In this document: positions 6,042-63,269 of the stretch, piece by piece
Layout: every line of letters begins with the position of its first letter
Position numbering within the stretch: the first letter of the stretch is position 1
Source of the DNA: a virus
Lineage: Duplodnaviria; Caudoviricetes
Direction: 5' to 3' (one strand)
Virus record (IMG/VR): IMGVR_UViG_3300028591_000075
Coordinates: 64,001-128,000 of that record
Length of the DNA stretch: 64,000 bases
Position numbers and translations under genes: made by a program
The notes under the pieces: model-generated
Databases searched by the model: none
Seen by the model: the letters and a program-made list of their open reading frames with translations, nothing else
Told to the model about the DNA's origin: nothing

Positions 6042-6110
6042 AGTTTATAGAAATGTCGAAAAAACAATCCGCCCATATATCAAATTTATGGGTGCAATGC
6101 CCTATAAACT
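6042..6110. promoter_or_regulatory. Divergent pair of TATAAACT (late-type) promoter motifs
   Basis: AGTTTATA at 6042-6049 (minus) and TATAAACT at 6103-6110 (plus). The same motif precedes many genes in the window. Confidence 0.7.
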
Positions 6111-9004: not shown

Positions 9005-9047
9005 CATTTATATAAACTGAGGGCATTACAGGACCTGAGGTTTTATC

Positions 9048-13097: not shown

Positions 13098-15079
13098 TAA
13101 CCCACCTTGAAGAGAGCTTCGGCAGTTTTCGCCTTCATAATCATGCCGGCCTTGTGACCCTCGACCATCATGGTAATCATCTGGTATCCGTTGGCCGCAT
13201 CCTCATCGGACCAGTGGTCAATTTCCTTCGGCTCGCTCTTCGGTTTCAACAGGTAGAACGGCGGATGGCCATTCTCCTTGATGTACATGGCGAGCTCACC
13301 CATTGCCTTGGTAATGCCATCGGCTTCCTTGGCTTCGAGTTCCTTCTTGGCACCGCGACCGAGAAGAGGAATCTTGCTCAGGAGCTTCTTGCCGGCAGCG
13401 GCAGCGGCATCGCCGAGACCCTTGCTTGCATTGTCGCTCTTGGCATTCACTTCGGCCATGGCCTTTGCATAACTCTTAAAGGACGCCTTGGGATCGACCA
13501 CGCTGTAGAACGCGGTAAGATGGGACATCGGAACTGGCACGGACTTGTTCAGGTCAACGAGCGTACCGCCGCTGACTCCGAGCGGGATGACGGTGACATT
13601 TTCGTTGCTGTCACCGGACTTGCCGTCGATTTCCTTGTACATGACGACGAGATTGTTTCTACGGCACGGAGTACCCTTGTTTCCGGCAATGCTCTTCAAC
13701 ACATCGACCGGGTTCTTGAGGGCATTCGAGATATCGGTAATCGCGCCTTCAACAAGCACATTGCCATCAGTGTTGACACCTTCGGTGCGAGTATCAATCC
13801 TGGCCTTCTTGTCTGTCGTGGCATCCTTCTTCCCACCGCCAAGACCGAGGGTACCCATCATGCCGATACCGAGTGCCTTTGCGACATCCGGATCAGCCTT
13901 GAGCTGCTTCTTGAATTCCTTGTATGCACGCTTCTGTGCCTTTGGTTCCTGGGCACGGAGCATTTCACGTACAAGCGTGGAGGTAAGGTTAATCATCGGG
14001 AAACCGAATGCCGTAATGAGCGCATTTTCCCATTCGCTATCGTCGATTTCCACATTGAACGCATCGGGTACTTCCACCTGCCCAACAATCTGGGAAAGCG
14101 CCTTGGAGATTTCGGTCTTCTGGGAAAGCGATGCCGTATTCTCACCCTTGTCGTTGAGCTTGCCGGCCTCTTTGAGTTCTTCATAAAGTTCCGGATTCAC
14201 GCGCTGGACGATGGTGAACACGATTTTCGAGATGCTCATCGGGTTCTTGGCCAGCTTGGCGTATATTTCGGAACCTTCGTCACCGGCCTTTTTCGCCTCG
14301 CCATCGATAAAGGCGGTAACCTTCTTCTCGATAGCCTTCTTCATCCCATCGTCAAGGCCGAGGGAATCAATCTTTTCAATGATGCTATGGTAAACTTCCT
14401 GTTTGTCGGGACTGGAACTTGCGCCCTGCTTTCCCGGAGCGGGCTTTGCGCCCTGATTTGCCTGAGCTGCGGTACCACCCAATGAAGTCAGCGGCGCATT
14501 GGAATGCCAGCCCTGTCCATTGATCTTGGCTTTCAACTCCTGTCCAATGGTTGGTTTGCCCATAAGTTCAAAAGTTGCGCCCTGTGCGGAAGCAAGTGAT
14601 TTGGAACCCTCCGTCTTCACAATCTTTCCATTGGAAACATAGATCTTCTTGTCATCACCGTAGCAATATATTGCGGTATTCTTCTCGCCAGGTTCACTGG
14701 CAACCACTTCGTTGGGTTTGCCGGAGGCAACTTTTGGATTTCTCTTTCTTGTCTGGTTTACATTGGCAGGTTGTTGGCCATTACCCGGTTCACCACCTTG
14801 GGCAGCAGGAGCAGCAGGGTCAGCCTTCGGCTTTCTAGCCCTAGGCTTCCCGGCGGGTTTCGGTGCACCCGCCTGGGCCTGCCCATCATTTTCCCCGCTT
14901 TCCATCACCGGAGCCATGATGTCATATTCCACCAGGGTATCGGCGAGCATCTTCGCTGCCGAGTTGTCACTTTCGAACATGACCTTGGAACCTTCGATAT
15001 CGGCACCAGTGTCCTCCATCGTAGAAATGAACGGGTCGAACGCGCCATTGTCCTTGATATCGTATTTTAAGAAATCCAT
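13097..15079 (-). CDS. Hypothetical protein (~660 aa), paralog of 6132-8627
   Basis: Likely start MDFLKYD at 15079, downstream of TATAAACT (15116-15109); shared C-terminal domain. Confidence 0.8.
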   Translation of the reverse strand: MDFLKYDIKDNGAFDPFISTMEDTGADIEGSKVMFESDNSAAKMLADTLVEYDIMAPVMESGENDGQAQAGAPKPAGKPRARKPKADPAAPAAQGGEPGNGQQPANVNQTRKRNPKVASGKPNEVVASEPGEKNTAIYCYGDDKKIYVSNGKIVKTEGSKSLASAQGATFELMGKPTIGQELKAKINGQGWHSNAPLTSLGGTAAQANQGAKPAPGKQGASSSPDKQEVYHSIIEKIDSLGLDDGMKKAIEKKVTAFIDGEAKKAGDEGSEIYAKLAKNPMSISKIVFTIVQRVNPELYEELKEAGKLNDKGENTASLSQKTEISKALSQIVGQVEVPDAFNVEIDDSEWENALITAFGFPMINLTSTLVREMLRAQEPKAQKRAYKEFKKQLKADPDVAKALGIGMMGTLGLGGGKKDATTDKKARIDTRTEGVNTDGNVLVEGAITDISNALKNPVDVLKSIAGNKGTPCRRNNLVVMYKEIDGKSGDSNENVTVIPLGVSGGTLVDLNKSVPVPMSHLTAFYSVVDPKASFKSYAKAMAEVNAKSDNASKGLGDAAAAAGKKLLSKIPLLGRGAKKELEAKEADGITKAMGELAMYIKENGHPPFYLLKPKSEPKEIDHWSDEDAANGYQMITMMVEGHKAGMIMKAKTAEALFKVG

Positions 15080-15129
15080 TGGAAAATCCCCGGAAAACCT
15101 TTTTCCGGAGTTTATAGGAAAACCGCGTC

Positions 15130-16686
15130 TCACGAAACCGCGTTAGCGTATTCGTCGGCTATCCTGCGGTCGGCCTCATCACCCCATCCGCAATAGTACC
15201 CGACCTCGTAGAACGATGCCATCTCGGCATCGACCATGGCGTCATCGGGTTCAAGTATCGCCCTCTCCTCGACTGTCGTAGTCGGGATGCCGAACCGGTC
15301 GAGTTCCCGGTCAAGGATGGCCTTGGCGGCATCGCCGAACTCGCGGGGAACGATGACCTCGTCATGCACAGTGCAGTAAGGGCACCCTATCTCGGCCTTG
15401 ATTGCCGGGATGACCACGTCGAACACGAAGGAACTCTCCATCCTCTGCATCTCGTATGCGAGTGCGCGGTAGTTCGACACCTTCATGCTGTCGATGAGGA
15501 TGAGCAGTTTCGGCCAATGTTCCTCCCACACCCTGCGACATGCATGCCAAGCCGGGTCGCACCCGTCATCGAGCCGGACACCGGCGAACAGCGTGGCCAG
15601 GAAGGCCTTCTTCGCCCTCTCGCGATCAACCACCTCATCCAGGTCAAAATCCTGTGACATCTCGGAAGCGAAGAACTCGTAAAGTTCGCGCCGTTCCAGC
15701 TTCCCGCGAAAATCGGCAAACTCCCGGTTCAACTGTTCCCGGCCAATCCAGTCCGGTGCGCCGGGATCCATCACGATGAACGATTCCCCGTTGCGCCCGA
15801 GCATGGCCTTGTCGCCACGGAGGCACGCGCCGATGATGTAGCACAGGAACGCGCCCTGGCTGCTCTTGATGTCAACCTCGGCAACCGGTCCGCCGTCACA
15901 TGTCAGGGCGCCCTCCCTGACCTCGCGCTTTACCTGGGTAATGTTGGTGTGTACGCGCCCGTAGTCGTCGCGCACGACATACAGAGAAGTGTCACTCTCC
16001 TCCGCATCGTTGAACCGGTCAACCTTCCTCAACTCACGGTCCAACTTGCGCCCCTCAATCCCGGCAGTCACCAGGGCGCGACGGGCCTTGGCCCGGTCGA
16101 TGTGGAAGTGTTTCAGGTTCTCGTGCGCATCGCGGACAACCGGGTCCATGAGCTGGATGCGCTTGCGGTCCTCGGCACATTTCTGCAGCCTTTTCAGGAG
16201 AATTTTCGACCGTAGTTTCACGGCCATCATGCGTCCCGCGTGGAAGTCGCCCTTGCCATAGAGGTGCGCGACATCCCTCGCGTAGCAGTATTCCTTCAAC
16301 ATCCACCCGTAGCCCTCGCCGAACCACACGGCCTTGCTCATGCCGGGTGTGCTCCCGGTAGCCTTGCAGTAGGAGGAACCGCGCATGAGGACACCCCAGT
16401 TCTTCAAGTTCTCGAACACCTCGATGTACTTGTGGCCCATCGCGGTATCCATGATTTTCGAGTAGAGGCGACAGAACCATTCGCGGCACTTCGGGGGCTT
16501 CCTGGTGGCCAGGTACTCCCTGCGGTAGGACTCGACGAGCCCCTTCGTTACCCAGTGGATGATTAGCCAGTAGTAGTCGTGGTCCCTCTCGGGGACATTG
16601 TGCTCTTTCAGCAGTGCGCGAATGGGTTTCCTGAACTTGTCCAGGACCCGTATCTCGTATTCAAACTTTGTCCGCGTTTCCGGCAT
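15130..16686 (-). CDS. Family-A polymerase-fold protein (TV-Pol/T7-like palm, no exonuclease domains) with N-terminal winged helix; candidate primase/initiator
   Basis: YGRVHTNIT, motif A EVDIKSSQ, motif B RERAKKAFLATLF, MQRMES, motif C TVHDEVIV; only 518 aa. Confidence 0.78.
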   Translation of the reverse strand: MPETRTKFEYEIRVLDKFRKPIRALLKEHNVPERDHDYYWLIIHWVTKGLVESYRREYLATRKPPKCREWFCRLYSKIMDTAMGHKYIEVFENLKNWGVLMRGSSYCKATGSTPGMSKAVWFGEGYGWMLKEYCYARDVAHLYGKGDFHAGRMMAVKLRSKILLKRLQKCAEDRKRIQLMDPVVRDAHENLKHFHIDRAKARRALVTAGIEGRKLDRELRKVDRFNDAEESDTSLYVVRDDYGRVHTNITQVKREVREGALTCDGGPVAEVDIKSSQGAFLCYIIGACLRGDKAMLGRNGESFIVMDPGAPDWIGREQLNREFADFRGKLERRELYEFFASEMSQDFDLDEVVDRERAKKAFLATLFAGVRLDDGCDPAWHACRRVWEEHWPKLLILIDSMKVSNYRALAYEMQRMESSFVFDVVIPAIKAEIGCPYCTVHDEVIVPREFGDAAKAILDRELDRFGIPTTTVEERAILEPDDAMVDAEMASFYEVGYYCGWGDEADRRIADEYANAVS

Positions 16687-16707
16687 GGCACCACAACTGA
16701 ACAGGAA

Positions 16708-16799
16708 GTGCCCCTGTGCCTCCCTCTTTTAATTTCGCTGGACGGGAGACAGCAGGGGCACCAAAATGAAAAACTCATCTTTCGGACGGGTCCAGCGAA
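16708..16799 (-). ncRNA. Structured 5' leader (H-type pseudoknot) of the PolA-like gene
   Basis: 17-bp stem 16708-16724/16744-16761 (one bulge, one G-U on the minus strand); loop 16734-16743 is perfectly complementary to 16790-16799. Confidence 0.6.
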
Positions 16800-16838
16800 G
16801 ACCGTTCCATTGCCCGCAGCTTATACATCGGCATAGAA

Positions 16839-16844
16839 AAACTA
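16839..16844 (-). promoter_or_regulatory. TAGTTT -10-type motif for the PolA-like gene
   Basis: Same motif precedes 8642, 9955, 12084(-), 22492, 40428, 52720 and 62669. Confidence 0.5.
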
Positions 16845-16918
16845 TCCCAACTACGGTTTCAACGGCAAAAAGTTACGAAACGCTTGCAACTTCAGCAAGG
16901 GGTCAGGCCCTGTACATA

Positions 16919-17237
16919 TGTAAAAAATTGTTTAAGTTTACATAATACTGGAGGCACAGCGACTCCCGGAGGGAGGGTTTTCTGTGGCTGCCGCCAAGGC
17001 TACTCCCCTTCCATAAAGATGTTTACGAAACAGCAGGGTGGCCAATATGGCCCAAAATGGGCAATTCGGGGAAGGCCGGAAGGGCCATCACGCCACCGGG
17101 CGTGTAAACTTTTCTAAACTGCTTGTACAGAGGTACCTGGACTCCCGAGGGGAGGGGAGGGGTTGAGTTTCGCCTGCGTCAAAGCAACCTACACATCCAT
17201 AAAGATGTTTACGATTTTAGGATGGGAAAATAGGCCC
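16919..17237. repeat. Two degenerate ~135-bp direct repeats (period ~185 bp), candidate origin/iterons
   Basis: Identical 19-mer TCCATAAAGATGTTTACGA at 17010 and 17196; GACTCCCG plus G-tract at 16961 and 17140. Confidence 0.8.
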
Positions 17238-17242
17238 CGTTG

Positions 17243-17271
17243 TTGACATTGTCTCCCGAATTTGCTACATT
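17243..17271 (+). promoter_or_regulatory. Sigma70-like promoter TTGACA-17-TACATT (leaderless)
   Basis: Consensus -35, 17-bp spacer, ATG 6 nt after the -10. Confidence 0.75.
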
Positions 17272-17277
17272 TTGGGC

Positions 17278-17745
17278 ATGAGCGAAGGAAATATCAGCAT
17301 AAGCGCACCCGAGAAGAAGTTCCGGGTGGGTATATTCTCGCCTACCGAGTGGCATGCCGGCATGACGAAGCCGTCCATGGTTATCGAGCTGTACCCGGTG
17401 TTCCATAGGTCATCGGTGACTTTCGTCCCGACAGTCGTCGGCGAGGAGCCTGACGTTATGGACGGATGGGAATCCGGGTACATCGCCGGCAAGGTGGTTG
17501 CCGCGGTCAAGGCCGAACTCGAAGCCGAAGGCGAACTGTCGAACGAAGCGCGTATTCACGACAAGACCTGGATCCTGTCGGCATCCGAAGGCTATGTGCG
17601 TCCCGGGGCTGACTACCGTGTACTCGTATGGTTCGTATCCGAAAGGCCGGGCGAGATTTCCGCCCTGTGGGTAGCATCCGCCGACTCGGTAAAACGTGAA
17701 ACCGCTGCGGTCGATGAACCGAAGGGGCACAGGTACAAGGTATAG
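17278..17745 (+). CDS. Hypothetical protein
   Basis: ORF starting MSEGN, co-oriented with uvsW. Confidence 0.7.
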   Translation: MSEGNISISAPEKKFRVGIFSPTEWHAGMTKPSMVIELYPVFHRSSVTFVPTVVGEEPDVMDGWESGYIAGKVVAAVKAELEAEGELSNEARIHDKTWILSASEGYVRPGADYRVLVWFVSERPGEISALWVASADSVKRETAAVDEPKGHRYKV

Positions 17746-17748
17746 CCG

Positions 17749-19638
17749 ATGGCTGAATCCGAAAAGAAATATGAATTTGTTGTCGAGTTCTCGGTGGGCG
17801 ATTCGTCGCACACCGCCGTTCGCGCATATCCGGTAAACCCGAATTCCAACGCGAAGAAGCTCGTCCACATGTTCATGCAGTCCGCCTTTACCTACTACAA
17901 CAAGGCGAAGAAGTATTCCTGGGAAGCGAAGCATCACATCCGCGGGTTCGACTGCAACGAGTATTTTTACGACAAGAATAAGGGGTGGATTCCGACGGGC
18001 ATGATCCCGAGGGCGCGTGACTACCTGAAAATGCAGTATGGCGACAGGGTGGCCATCACGATTTCTAAGGAAATCCGCAACATGTTCTCCCCGCCTTTCG
18101 GGCAGATTACGCGAGAAGACATCGAGGAGTTTACCAAGACACTCAATATCCACGACCGGGAAACCGGGAAGCCGCTGATCCCGTTCGAGCATCAGTACCG
18201 TCTGGTCGAGATTGCGCTCAACAGGCGCCGTGGCCTCCTGTTTGCATGTACCTCCGCCGGCAAGTCGGTGTCGATGATGATAATCGCCCGCTACCTGATG
18301 GAGAAGGAACACAAGAAGATCCTCATCATTGTGCCGAGCAAGGGCCTGGTCGAACAGCTTTACGACAACTTCTACACCGACTACGGGTGGGACGATGCGC
18401 GTGAATACTGTACCCTGCTGCATGGCGAGTCCTCTGACAAGATTTCCAAGAAGAAACTGGAAGAGTTGCAGAAGAAGTCAATCGGTGAAGAGAAGCTGTT
18501 GAAGCAGATTACCATCTCCACCTGGCAGACGCTCCAGCACAAGCACCCCGGTTTCTTCAAGGTGTTCGATGCCGTCCTGGTGGACGAGGCGCACGGCATG
18601 CGCGGTGTCGTCCTGCGCAGCATCCTCGAACAGTGTACCAACGCAAACAATTTCAAGGTCGGTGTCTCCGGCACGCTTCCCCTTGTCAAGCCCACCAAGG
18701 AGAACCGTGGACAGCACGGCGAAATCGGTATCAGCCTGGCACCCAGGGACGTTACCGACAGTGCCGAGTTCATCGACGCATGCAATATCGAATCGCAGCT
18801 CGGTCCGATTTATGACGTTGTACACCTTCGCGACCTTATCGCGAACGGTACGTTGACCCCGGTGCAGATGCACATGATTTACATCCCGTATCCCTACAAT
18901 ACGCGCTACGGCATATGTTATGCCAAGTACCAGATGGAACGGGCGATCGTCCTCGGGAACAGTTCCCGCAAGGACGTGATTTCCATGCTTATCGACGCCG
19001 GTCACCTTGGCACCGACCAGAATTCGGTCATTCTCTATGACGGCATCGAGCGTCTGCACGACCTGCATGATTTCTTGCAGGGGAAATATCCGCAGTACAC
19101 CTACCACATCATCGAGGGTGAAGTCAGCGCGTCCGAGCGCGAATCTATCCGAAAGCTGCTGGAAGGCAGTACCGGTAATATCCTCATCGCCACTTACGGT
19201 TGCATGAAGCAGGGCGTGAACATCAAGCAGCTCAACAACCTGGTCCTTGCCGAGCCGGCCAAGTCCATGTACAAGGTGATGCAGTCCATCGGGCGCGTGG
19301 TGCGAAAGCACCCGAACAAGCAGGTCGCCAACGTGTACGACCTCGTGGATGACGCAAATTGCTGGAAGCGTAAGCTGGACGGGACATCGGAGCAGATGTT
19401 CAACTACATGATGATACACGCCCGTTACCGCATGACGTACTATGATGCGGAGAACATCCCCATCGAGGAGCAGCACATGGACGGCATATACGAGGCGCAG
19501 CTTACCCCCGATGACATCAAGAAGCACCGCAAGGAAGCTGCCGACCGTGCCGCCGAGCGACTGCAAAAGCAGAAGCAGAAGAATGGTGGACAGATAGAGA
19601 TGGATTTGCCATACAAGAAGAAATTCTCGCTGATTTAG
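17749..19638 (+). CDS. uvsW: UvsW-like SF2 DNA helicase
   Basis: TSAGKS Walker A, DEAH, SGT, QSIGRVVR, VYDLVDD motifs; T4 UvsW layout. Confidence 0.92.
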   Translation: MAESEKKYEFVVEFSVGDSSHTAVRAYPVNPNSNAKKLVHMFMQSAFTYYNKAKKYSWEAKHHIRGFDCNEYFYDKNKGWIPTGMIPRARDYLKMQYGDRVAITISKEIRNMFSPPFGQITREDIEEFTKTLNIHDRETGKPLIPFEHQYRLVEIALNRRRGLLFACTSAGKSVSMMIIARYLMEKEHKKILIIVPSKGLVEQLYDNFYTDYGWDDAREYCTLLHGESSDKISKKKLEELQKKSIGEEKLLKQITISTWQTLQHKHPGFFKVFDAVLVDEAHGMRGVVLRSILEQCTNANNFKVGVSGTLPLVKPTKENRGQHGEIGISLAPRDVTDSAEFIDACNIESQLGPIYDVVHLRDLIANGTLTPVQMHMIYIPYPYNTRYGICYAKYQMERAIVLGNSSRKDVISMLIDAGHLGTDQNSVILYDGIERLHDLHDFLQGKYPQYTYHIIEGEVSASERESIRKLLEGSTGNILIATYGCMKQGVNIKQLNNLVLAEPAKSMYKVMQSIGRVVRKHPNKQVANVYDLVDDANCWKRKLDGTSEQMFNYMMIHARYRMTYYDAENIPIEEQHMDGIYEAQLTPDDIKKHRKEAADRAAERLQKQKQKNGGQIEMDLPYKKKFSLI

Positions 19639-24740: not shown

Positions 24741-24761
24741 TTCCATTTGACACATTAAATT

Positions 24762-24798
24762 AAGCTCGGTTGCCACTACCGGGCTTTTTTGCTAAATT
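24762..24798 (+). promoter_or_regulatory. Terminator hairpin fused with promoter TTGCCA-17-TAAATT (leaderless gp46)
   Basis: aagctcggt-tgccact-accgggctt+T tract; -35 lies in the loop; ATG 6 nt after the -10. Confidence 0.65.
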
Positions 24799-24804
24799 TG
24801 GAAT

Positions 24805-27231
24805 ATGGCTAATTCTTCGAAGAATCATATTCATGTAAAGCGGATTACATTCCGTAACTTCATGTCCTACGGCAACAACGTGAACGAATTCACGTTCCCC
24901 GACGGCCTGAACTGGCTCTGTGCGGCCAACGGATGTGGCAAGTCCACTCTCGTAGAGGCACTTAATTTTGCATTTTTCGGCAAGTCCTACCGAGGCGGTA
25001 AGCGCGAGGAACTCCGGAACACGATGAACACCGAGGCGGTACTCGAAGTCACCGTCGAGTTCAGCCGTACCCAGGGTACCACTACCGAGGAATACTTCAT
25101 CAAGCGCACGGTCGATCCGAAGAACACGATGAAGTTCACCGTCGAGAAGAAGGAAGGCGACAAGTGGATTCCCCAGAACAAGCGTGCCGGGTTTACCCAG
25201 AAGGATTTCGAGGATGACATCCTCCGCTTCAATGAAGTCTTGTTCAAGAACAACATCGCGCAGAACACCCAGGAATCCTTGCCGTTCATTGACATGGAAG
25301 CCGCTGACCGCCGTAAGCTCACCGACTCCATCATCATGCTGGACAACGACCGCATCAAGAAGGAAAATGCGAAGGAACTGTCCACGGCGAAGACCAATTT
25401 CGAAATTGCCAAGAGCGACCGTGACCGCATCGAGAACGAAATCACCGAGCTCAAGAAAATCATCGCCCACATGGAAGACGAGAAGAAGGCCAACATCGCC
25501 CAGATGGAAGCGACCGTTGCCGAGAAGCGTACTCTCGTCGAACAGTACAAGGGCCAGTCCGGAGCACTTGCTACCGAACTTCAAGCATTGCAGAACCGTC
25601 TCACGGAATTGAAGTCCGTGCTCGATACCGAGCCGAGTATCGATGCGGCAATCGCGGGCATTCATAATGCGAAGTCACAGATAGTTCCGTTGCAGCAGTA
25701 CCGTGCCGAACTTGAAAAGGCGAATGTCGAATTGACTGCCGCGATGAATTCCTACAATGCGTTGCCCATCCAGGCGAAGAACGAGGAACTGGCCGGCATC
25801 GATAGCCAAATTAGGGAGCTGAATACCGCTGCCCAGGGTATCATGACTGAAATCAACGGGTTGAACTCCGAAAAGGGTAAAGCCGAAGGTTTCGTCCAAA
25901 AATGGGACTATGCAATCCAACAGGCTTCCACACAGTTGAAGCAACTTGCCGATGACGGCAAGAAGCGCAAGGCTGACCTTGACCATGTTGACGAGCAGAT
26001 CAACCTCGGTGCCATGATGCAAGCCGGTACCAAGTGTCCTACTTGCGGCCATACCCTTACCGAGGCCGACATCGAGGAACATAAGGGCGAAATCCGCCAG
26101 AAACTTATTGGCGATATCAATGCCGATGTCAATCGTCTTCGCGAAGCCTGGCTTCAATGTAAAGGAACAGTTACGGAACTTGAACACAGTCGTGCAGAGG
26201 CTGCAGCAGCCCTGGAAAAGGTCACTGGTGACTTGTCCGGCGCCAATGAGCGTTATTCCGCTATCGAGCAGCAGTTGGCTACCGCCAACACTAACCGGGG
26301 CACCGTATATAACGAGATCCAGGGCTACACATCCATCTACAATAGCACTGTCATTCCGGTGCAGGCCAAGGTCGAGCAACTGAAACGCAACATTTCCATG
26401 AGTGAACAGGTTATTGCCGGTACCGGCATAAATGTCGATGAATTTGTTGCCGAAGAAGCCCGCCTGACACAGGAAAAGGAGCGCATCGCAGGTGTCCGTA
26501 CTGACTGGCAGTCGGTGTATGATACCTACTCCACGAAGAACGGCGAGTATTCTTCTCTCAGCGGTTCCATTACCCAGGTGGAAGCAGAAATTTCCCGTAT
26601 CGAGGGTGAAATTGCCCGCATCAAGGCAGCTACCAGTGAAGATGCGTTGGCCATGACCAACAAGCGTCTCGCCGATGCCGAGCGTGACCTTGAACAGGCG
26701 ACTGAACGCTGGCATACCGCAAGCAAGACTATTGCCGCATGTAATTACATCACCGGTATGCTGTCGGATGGCGGCATGAAGAAGATGGTCTATGGATTGT
26801 ACATCGACCACTTCAACGAGGTCGTTCGCAAGAACCTGCTCAGGGCGAATCTCCCGTTCGTCATCGAGTTCGATGACACAATGAACTTCAAGTTCATCAG
26901 TGCCCCTGGATATGCGCCGTCCTATACCATGTTGTCCCAGGGTCAGCGCCGCAAGGTCGGCTTCGCAATCGCGATGGCCTTCCGTGACTTTGTGTCCCTG
27001 GTCGGCAATTTCAGTATCAACTTCATGTCCCTCGACGAAGTGCTCGACATTTCGACCGACAACTACGCCATGAGGGAAATGCTGGATATCGTGCGCTCCA
27101 TGGTTTCCGAAATCGGGTGCGTGGTCGTCATTACCCACCGTGGCGATGCCGTGGCCGACAAGTTCGACCACAAGATCGTGGTGGAATATGACGGAACTTA
27201 TTCCCATATGGGTGAAGTTACAGCCGTGTAA
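24805..27231 (+). CDS. gp46: Recombination ATPase gp46 (Rad50/SbcC-like)
   Basis: NFMSYGN, NGCGKST, coiled coil with CPTC zinc hook, LSQGQ signature, LDEVLD, ITH. Confidence 0.93.
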   Translation: MANSSKNHIHVKRITFRNFMSYGNNVNEFTFPDGLNWLCAANGCGKSTLVEALNFAFFGKSYRGGKREELRNTMNTEAVLEVTVEFSRTQGTTTEEYFIKRTVDPKNTMKFTVEKKEGDKWIPQNKRAGFTQKDFEDDILRFNEVLFKNNIAQNTQESLPFIDMEAADRRKLTDSIIMLDNDRIKKENAKELSTAKTNFEIAKSDRDRIENEITELKKIIAHMEDEKKANIAQMEATVAEKRTLVEQYKGQSGALATELQALQNRLTELKSVLDTEPSIDAAIAGIHNAKSQIVPLQQYRAELEKANVELTAAMNSYNALPIQAKNEELAGIDSQIRELNTAAQGIMTEINGLNSEKGKAEGFVQKWDYAIQQASTQLKQLADDGKKRKADLDHVDEQINLGAMMQAGTKCPTCGHTLTEADIEEHKGEIRQKLIGDINADVNRLREAWLQCKGTVTELEHSRAEAAAALEKVTGDLSGANERYSAIEQQLATANTNRGTVYNEIQGYTSIYNSTVIPVQAKVEQLKRNISMSEQVIAGTGINVDEFVAEEARLTQEKERIAGVRTDWQSVYDTYSTKNGEYSSLSGSITQVEAEISRIEGEIARIKAATSEDALAMTNKRLADAERDLEQATERWHTASKTIAACNYITGMLSDGGMKKMVYGLYIDHFNEVVRKNLLRANLPFVIEFDDTMNFKFISAPGYAPSYTMLSQGQRRKVGFAIAMAFRDFVSLVGNFSINFMSLDEVLDISTDNYAMREMLDIVRSMVSEIGCVVVITHRGDAVADKFDHKIVVEYDGTYSHMGEVTAV

Positions 27232-43719: not shown

Positions 43720-43772
43720 GGCCTCAAAGGTTATAAACTATCCGGTGATAATATAGTCGCCGGATCGTTTTT

Positions 43773-63236: not shown

Positions 63237-63269
63237 CCTATAAACTGGAACCTGTAGAGGAAGAACGAC

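Follow-up and report, generated by a model that had tools for sequence, protein, structure and literature searches.

The leader of P0001, a polymerase-like gene of a jumbo phage, very probably forms a genuine and conserved RNA pseudoknot, with helices that differ in sequence among relatives and yet remain complementary. The pseudoknot leader is a structured-RNA motif of a known general kind but undescribed, narrow in its distribution and attached to an orphan polymerase. An H-type pseudoknot upstream of this PolA-like gene, on the gene strand, had been proposed in a preliminary description of the same DNA, and this proposal stands, with compensatory change in the relatives now added to it.

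Genomic setting and product of the downstream gene

The window, i.e., the whole stretch of 64,000 nt analysed, represents bases 64001-128000 of a 253-kb IMG/VR virus contig (CheckV completeness estimate of 67%) that comes from an uncultivated, livestock-gut jumbo phage. The pseudoknot leader is located within a ~590-bp divergent intergenic region that contains repeats and has P0001 on one flank and, on the other, an operon that includes a DEAD/ResIII helicase gene (Table 1). A blastn search of the locus against a phage database gave no match. Among the neighbouring ORFs, one of 337 aa (17410-18423, minus strand) has no family match, overlaps both the plus-strand gene 17279-17745 and the helicase gene (17749-19638), and is probably a shadow ORF. 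Another, of 678 aa, is listed from a GTG at 15133, with the ATG at 15079 as the likelier start, and is preceded by a TATAAACT copy (15116-15109) that falls within the coding sequence of P0001, near its 3' end.

Sequence searches with P0001 returned no Pfam match (even at E values up to 10) and no PHROG or PDB-sequence match, and the DNA_pol_A profile was unmatched. A structural model was obtained with AlphaFold2 from 18 homologs (pLDDT 76), and residues ~172-470 of this model match family-A polymerases by structure alignment (VIA-align), with Z = 11.6 against Aquifex Pol I (243 residues, rmsd 3.8), 11.5 against the Klenow fragment, 10.8 against T7 DNA polymerase, 9.8 against mitochondrial RNA polymerase and 8.5 against T7 RNA polymerase. 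Foldseek searches against the PDB produced weak rows (E ~1e-3, TM ~0.3), all of them family-A polymerases or single-subunit RNA polymerases. Residues ~10-160 weakly resemble winged-helix domains (Z 5-6.4), and D272, R355, K359, H441 and D442 are invariant in the 18 homologs. Given the match at Z = 11.6 and the invariant D272 and D442 (motifs A and C), the PolA-like label that the gene had received earlier holds for the modelled fold, with sequence profiles giving no match; the enzyme could make either DNA or RNA. The P0001 core has no exonuclease domains, like that of TV-Pol and the minimal family-A polymerases (Iyer, Abhiman, Aravind 2008, PMC2579912), and such stripped-down superfamily-A polymerases occur in mobile elements and viruses (PMC2579912). 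Unlike TV-Pol, P0001 has no Pfam match and carries an N-terminal winged-helix-like domain; the likeness to TV-Pol is one of fold and description.

Structure of the leader

On the minus-strand RNA, a GC-rich, two-part hairpin (S) that ends 20 nt upstream of the ATG (16686) comprises outer and inner helices of 9 and 8 bp, respectively, with a bulged C between them (16761-16744 with 16724-16708). The hairpin of 17 bp claimed in the preliminary description was thereby confirmed on the checked sequence, and the MFE fold adds a single closing G.U pair for a total of 18 bp (16762-16744 / 16724-16707). S contains a single internal U.G pair, whose equivalent on the plus strand is a C-A mismatch, as had been pointed out. 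The claim that the first 10 nt of the 19-nt terminal loop pair perfectly with an upstream segment also proved accurate: an inverted-repeat search found these 10 nt (U', 16743-16734) to be 100% complementary to U (16799-16790), which lies 46 nt upstream of U'. Of 5000 dinucleotide shuffles, 10 attained a perfect 10-nt match of the upstream region with the part that the outer helix encloses. For the 171-nt region, the folding energy is -65.2 kcal/mol on the minus strand (z = -2.69; 2 of 200 shuffles as good) and -51.2 kcal/mol on the plus strand (z = -1.81). The whole H-type pseudoknot spans ~93 nt and occupies nearly all of the space from the promoter-like motif to the short pyrimidine-rich spacer before the AUG. 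The junction of 0-3 nt between U' and the inner stem would let the two helices stack coaxially into one long rod.

The connecting loop L1 bears a small hairpin of its own in the window clade, which is not conserved, and a loose UUU-N-RAA motif was noted in it by eye only. In addition, the S 5' arm together with its preceding bases (16746-16768) is 78% identical over 23 nt to 17027-17049, just upstream of the second copy of the 17-nt core motif described below; this likeness, which could be the trace of a duplication or a chance match, was not seen in more distant relatives.

A competing hairpin, acting as a switch, had also been suggested for the upstream arm. The hairpin itself is present in the window (GGUCU/GGACC, 16803-16789) and overlaps U, but the switch is not a feature of the family. 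That is, the cost of freeing U would be 3.6-7.4 kcal/mol in the window clade, L025 and L039 and 8.2 kcal/mol in L041, whereas the remaining six lineages that were tested gave values of only 0-3.4 kcal/mol, and a conserved hairpin switch was rejected on the basis of the latter values. The MFE folds further suggested that the 5' segment pairs with the spacer in a third helix, which would sequester the sequence ahead of the AUG. This helix was rejected as well, since in 5 of the 7 lineages its duplex energies did not surpass those of dinucleotide shuffles (p 0.17-0.87). The same applies to a conserved upstream ORF (a 56-aa ORF from 16778 is found only where the leader reads GAUGAG, and is absent in L003, L017 and others) and to L1 as a mimic of the repeated motif, for which the shared 7-mer, AAAGATG, occurs in the window only, is not conserved and has a chance expectation of ~0.2 by our own estimate.

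Table 1. Features of the P0001 leader and its surroundings (window coordinates), and the U/U' sequence pairs of the relatives
Feature	Position	Strand	Remarks
P0001 gene (518 aa)	15130..16686	(-)	ATG at 16686; one flank of the intergenic region
Spacer from S to AUG, pyrimidine-rich, weak GGUG at its end	16687..16706	(-)	12-24 nt in all leaders
S 3' arm	16707..16724	(-)	Folding and alignment; GGGAGG within, window clade only
L3, A-rich 9-nt remainder of the loop	16725..16733	(-)	0-11 nt among relatives
U' (GUCCAGCGAA), first 10 nt of the loop, pairs with U	16734..16743	(-)	Starts 0-3 nt past the inner helix in 19/19 leaders
S 5' arm (outer helix, bulged C, inner helix)	16744..16762	(-)	S included in the MFE fold of every lineage
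L1, 27-nt A/U-rich connecting loop	16763..16789	(-)	23-34 nt in 19/19 leaders
U (UUCGCUGGAC), 5' strand of the pseudoknot helix	16790..16799	(-)	100% complementary to 16734-16743; partner covaries among relatives
Promoter-like motif TATAAGCT, variant of TATAAACT	16818..16825	(-)	17/19 leaders
Candidate second promoter (TTGCTG, 17 nt, TAACTTTTTG)	16866..16898	(-)	Conserved in close relatives
Operon on the other flank	start 17279	(+)	Includes DEAD/ResIII helicase (17749-19638)
TATAAACT, example copies in the window	6103-6110, 9011-9018, 15109-15116, 43732-43739, 63239-63246
U/U' UUCGCUGGAC / GUCCAGCGAA			Window clade
U/U' UCGCAGGGUC / GGCCCUGCGA			L025
U/U' UCGCAGGAC / GUCCUGCGA			L039
U/U' GCAAUCUCC / GGAGAUUGC			L004, L044
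U/U' GUUGCGG / CCGCAAC			L022
U/U' GUGCAUCC / GGAUGCAC			L023, L043
U/U' GGUAGGACU / AGUCCUACC			L042
U/U' UACGGUU / AACCGUA			L045
U/U' wobble-rich pair			L041

Conservation of the pairing among relatives

Homologs of P0001 were collected from viral and metagenome contigs by back-translated pattern scans and protein search, and comprise group A (58-98% protein identity to P0001; 19 distinct leaders) and group B (~40% identity). A single algorithm, with no tuning for individual sequences, was applied to the leaders: the best complementary run was taken as the outer helix, the best run between the upstream and the enclosed sequence was searched for thereafter, and, as the last step, the enclosed region was folded with the U' segment kept single-stranded. 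All 19 group A leaders showed the same architecture, with U first and the S 5' arm, U' and the S 3' arm following in this order. U starts 25-32 nt from the first base of the TATAAGCT-type motif, S is two-part with 14-20 pairs and a terminal loop of 9-20 nt, U' measures 7-11 nt and lies 43-55 nt downstream of U, and the 3' end of S is followed by the AUG after 12-24 nt, with 7-11 pyrimidines among the first 12 nt of this spacer. Thus, the start of U, the length of L2 (0-3 nt) and that of the spacer are constrained while the helix sequences turn over.

The turnover is clearest for U/U', which is represented by eight or nine different sequence pairs among the relatives, every one of them complementary (Table 1). 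Shuffle tests of U/U' in individual lineages gave p values of 0.002-0.4, and their combination by Fisher's method over eight lineages gave p = 4e-7, a value computed on the pairing, with the conserved position ignored. Alignment-based counts of pairs were restricted to the 11 leaders that MAFFT aligned well, because both MAFFT and covariance-model alignment put the helices of the most divergent leaders out of register; the latter leaders were therefore analysed singly. Among the 11 alignable leaders, 94.8% of the cells are paired, vs. 41-56% when the partners are slid by 1-3 columns, and 7 pairs (15 cells) are changed on both sides, i.e., the covariation across homolog leaders by which the pseudoknot was to be checked is present. 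The paired fraction, the number of double-change cells and the covariation score were each reached by 0 of 500 shuffles, with similar results on 8 sequences. In helix 2 of S, pairing amounts to 96%, and 5 pairs differ at both positions. A covariance model of S alone places the L023, L004 and L022 leaders correctly (E = 6e-5 to 0.03) and finds a single copy in the entire 253-kb genome.

The leader pseudoknot is absent from the group B homologs (~40% identity), which instead carry ATAAACT ~37 nt before the ATG and a promoter (TTGMCR, 17 nt, TAnnTTTGG) that ends 4-7 nt before the ATG. Since group B is without the leader, the pseudoknot is an innovation of group A. As a separate observation, four group B members (L033, L034, L032 and L035) have 100-140 nt between the last motif copy and ATAAACT, and these stretches fold to -45 to -66 kcal/mol with several GC-rich hairpins, which could mean that small structured RNAs are produced there from the motif copies.

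RNA on the gene strand or element of the DNA

Several lines of evidence bear on the strand and on the molecule that folds. The helices of the first 11 leaders contain 13 G.U pairs on the gene strand, a count that is not neutral because the helix definition allowed G.U but not A.C. When S was folded on both strands, the sense strand gave the stabler hairpin in 7 of 9 lineages, with a margin of 6-10 kcal/mol in L025, L004 and L022, and antisense S was slightly more stable in L042 and L045. The latter two lineages, together with the location in a ~590-bp divergent intergenic region with repeats, are what would be expected of an element acting at the DNA level, i.e., inverted repeats that form single-stranded DNA hairpins or a site for a dimeric protein, as part of an adjacent putative origin. 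However, the gene-strand G.U pairs, which in L025 and L041 occur within U:U' itself, are against such an element, as is the constant junction of 0-3 nt between U' and the inner stem, which matters to the stacking of RNA and not to protein half-sites. The position is also fixed relative to the promoter motif and the AUG, and only one copy exists. We consider the DNA element the least probable of the readings weighed in this study. RNA of the gene strand is the best reading of the sequences, on account of the G.U pairs, the stability of the sense strand, the 0-3 nt junction and the fixed position between motif and AUG, with the orientation of the wobble pairs favouring the gene strand moderately.

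Promoter-like motifs and upstream repeats

The promoter-like motif starts 126-143 nt upstream of the AUG across the 19 leaders; L042 and L045 carry variants of it (TATAAAACT and TATAAGTCT, 134 and 126 nt before the AUG, respectively). The 253-kb genome contains 39 copies of TATAAACT and 5 of TATAAGCT, vs. ~8 and ~8 expected by chance according to our own arithmetic, and these copies lie mostly 5-35 nt before the ATG of an ORF, and ~40 genes are preceded by TATAAACT. This motif looks like a late-type promoter of the phage, comparable to T4 TATAAATA, and several copies are so near the ATG that the resulting mRNAs would be almost leader-free. The gap of 131 nt at P0001 is an outlier, the longest after any of the 44 motif copies, and a start at TATAAGCT (16825-16818) would give a leader of ~125 nt, vs. 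the ~146 nt of the preliminary description, in which the start had been predicted near 16832. A candidate second promoter farther upstream (Table 1) resembles, by eye, the group B promoter that abuts the ATG and was left unflagged by a sigma-70 scan. All promoter candidates being upstream of U, a transcript from any of them would include the knot.

Elsewhere in the window, TTGACA, 17 nt, TACATT (17243-17281) ends 6 nt before the ATG at 17279, and TTGCCA, 17 nt, TAAATTTG (24760-24807) ends 4 nt before the ATG at 24805, which makes the genes at 17279 and 24805 candidates for leaderless early mRNAs. TAnnTTTG is the -7 consensus of Bacteroidota, and the TAnnTTTG form of the second box of the 24760-24807 promoter hints at a Bacteroidota host.

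The intergenic region also contains a 17-nt core motif, TCGTAAACATCTTTATG, in two minus-strand copies (17012-17030 and 17198-17216), each continuing into GG. These are the only two in 253 kb, and both are upstream of P0001 and read toward it; a partial third copy, TTTCGTAA, is found at 16880-16873. The core is unchanged among the close relatives examined while its flanks diverge, and most group B homologs have 1-3 upstream copies of a related motif, CGTAAACATATnnATAG, at distances of 85-190 nt from one another (no copy of this type was found in L004, L005 and L037). The end of the TCGTAAACATCTTTATG-type motif resembles a T7-type promoter (CTATAGG), and the core may be the recognition site of the polymerase itself, as origin or promoter.

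This arrangement raises the question of whether the element could be a separate small RNA of ~105-115 nt, extending from TATAAGCT to the U-tract and acting together with the polymerase at the nearby repeats, e.g., as its primer, as a template or as a cofactor bound to it. In many relatives there is indeed a promoter-like motif upstream and a terminator-like end downstream, the element is always beside a polymerase-fold gene and a core motif found only twice in the genome, and a related core motif is upstream of nearly every homolog examined. However, the window clade is without a good terminator tail, transcription of the gene must run through the element, given that no other promoter-like sequence was seen from S to the ATG, and the RNA is missing from the distant homologs, which have retained both enzyme and repeats. 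For these reasons, we regard a separate small RNA as quite unlikely, and the stronger version, in which the knotted RNA would be the polymerase's RNA partner (primer, template or scaffold), bound and extended at the neighbouring motif repeats, as very improbable.

Possible function of the pseudoknot

We think it rather likely that the pseudoknot regulates the P0001 gene in cis, after transcription has started. For the mechanism, we propose, tentatively, a protein operator that acts on translation from the edge of the predicted ribosome landing site. Under this hypothesis, the knot would be a cis-acting translational operator, i.e., a rigid platform of specific shape that borders the landing site on its 5' side, and would be bound by a protein, the likeliest candidate being the P0001 polymerase itself once its amount exceeds that of its DNA sites. 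The knot-bound protein would block loading of the 30S subunit on the neighbouring spacer, and the amount of polymerase would be held down even though its gene has the type of promoter motif that precedes ~40 other genes. We rank the operator first because the shape and not the sequence is conserved, at a constrained distance from the start codon; because the knot borders, without covering, the pyrimidine-rich landing zone; because the product, given its polymerase fold, would bind nucleic acid; and because T4-type phages repress gene 32 and gene 43 autogenously through leader structures (PMC3014915).

Several observations do not fit the operator well. S ends 12-24 nt before the AUG and leaves the start codon uncovered, the spacer is without the A/U-rich UUAAA repeats of the gene 32 operator, and homologs of ~40% identity manage without the leader. 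The sole strong SD-like element, inside S, is not conserved either. The preliminary description had emphasized this element as a GGGAGG buried in the stem, more than 30 nt from the ATG; it is indeed found in the 3' arm (16724-16719), 32 nt before the ATG, but is confined to the subclade of the window. A GGGAGG-like sequence being limited to this subclade, SD sequestration cannot be the common mechanism, and we rejected the buried SD as an explanation.

Further, the U-tract that follows S in most relatives fits a transcription attenuator at least as well as an operator. As an attenuator, S would be an intrinsic terminator between promoter and gene, such that only read-through transcripts encode the polymerase, and the U:U' helix, whose formation precedes the synthesis of the 3' arm, would tune the speed or completeness of S closure and thereby set the read-through fraction. 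A GC-rich stem that leads into a U/pyrimidine tract, as in intrinsic terminators and leader attenuators, is found a short distance ahead of the start codon in most relatives. Of the 6 basal pairs of S, 4-6 are G-C, and 8-nt stretches with 5 or more U, beginning 0-2 nt past the stem, are present in ~6 of 9 lineages (7 U of 8 nt in L004, L044 and L023). The late-type motif resembles the T4 late promoter, which is read by the host RNA polymerase core, an enzyme that obeys intrinsic terminators, and ordinary terminators (a GC hairpin, then UUUU) are visible elsewhere in this phage. Unlike such terminators, however, S is two-part with 15-20 bp, its loop of 9-20 nt exceeds the short-loop criterion of 3-8 nt and is knotted to an upstream segment, and the terminator scan left S unflagged. 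The U-tract is weak in the window and its nearest relatives (only 3-4 U in 8; 4 in the window), and the pyrimidine tract could equally be the ribosome landing site. Finally, U pairs with the loop and not with a terminator arm, which leaves no obvious antiterminator, and no competing one was identified. We regard an attenuator as the main rival of the operator, and as only slightly less probable.

The leader could also act on the mRNA itself, with the stacked helices (~27 bp in total) shielding the 5' end, or with an RNase III site that sets the functional 5' end. U would be ~12-20 nt from the 5' end if transcription starts just past TATAAGCT, and the quasi-continuous helix formed by S and U:U' across the 0-3 nt junction matches in length the RNase III substrates known from phages (e.g., the R-sites of T7 and the N leader of lambda). 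However, 5' stabilisers are usually within a few nt of the 5' end, the sequence offers no evidence of an RNase III site, and a role in stability or processing, which we consider unlikely, would leave the constrained distance to the AUG unexplained.

Comparison with known systems

The leader had been described as novel, and the pseudoknot matches no Rfam family. Specifically, cmscan of 15500-18500 on both strands, with E values up to 10, gave four weak matches, none at threshold and none on the leader strand. One of them, RF01089 (PK-repBA), falls on the leader (16709-16768) but on the plus (antisense) strand, with 14.6 bits (threshold 45) and E = 8.3. Another weak match, to HCV_J750 at 15751-15868 (plus; 33.9 bits, threshold 90, E = 7e-4), is opposite the P0001 coding region and was taken as chance.

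Two short stems make up the small knot of gene 32, whereas the present knot covers ~93 nt, with a stem of 15-20 bp and a pyrimidine-rich spacer of 12-24 nt without UUAAA repeats, and P0001 is a polymerase-fold enzyme, not an ssDNA-binding protein. Shared with the gene 32 leader of T4, T2 and RB69 (PMC3014915, PMC535899) are an H-type pseudoknot with coaxially stacked stems (predicted in the present case) and its location on the 5' side of the leader of a replication gene. In both leaders, the knot is upstream of the start codon without covering it, and the products bind nucleic acid (P0001 by prediction). In gene 32, a distance of 67 nt separates the knot from the initiation codon downstream of it, and there is an unstructured A+U-rich tract with UUAA(A) repeats, where binding is cooperative (PMC3014915). 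The functional analogy proposed for P0001 is with gene 43 of T4 and RB69, where the phage polymerase represses its own translation through a structured leader element (PMC3014915), although gp43 is a family-B enzyme and P0001 has a family-A fold. The gp43 operator comprises a hairpin of 16-18 nt along with bases that overlap the ribosome binding site, with no pseudoknot, and its autoregulation is absent in some T4 relatives (PMC3014915).

The control of IncI/IncB rep genes had been suggested as a further parallel. In the IncB and IncI-alpha plasmids, the hairpin loop pairs downstream, beside the rep ribosome binding site, and activates translation, and an antisense RNA blocks this pairing. The P0001 leader shares with these systems (RF01089, PK-repBA) a hairpin loop that pairs with a distant single strand in the leader of a replication protein, but the likeness fails on geometry, the loop partner being upstream rather than at the ribosome binding site. 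Nor was an antisense promoter detected, the scan of the plus strand over 16400-17200 having returned no promoter-like site.

In conclusion, the leader pseudoknot is a candidate for a new RNA family suitable for Rfam-type curation. A review from 2010 noted that gene 32 of T4-type phages was possibly the only case of a viral pseudoknot used for translational autoregulation (PMC3014915). The P0001 leader would represent a putative second regulatory pseudoknot of a phage leader, unrelated to that of gene 32 and much larger, in which the pairing has been kept despite complete sequence turnover. If the reading of the knotted RNA as the polymerase's partner were true, it would amount to a polymerase-RNA replication-start particle built on a family-A fold. 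The compensatory U/U' pairs, in turn, represent a mutable handle on how the level of an enzyme that apparently combines a winged-helix and a family-A domain is set.
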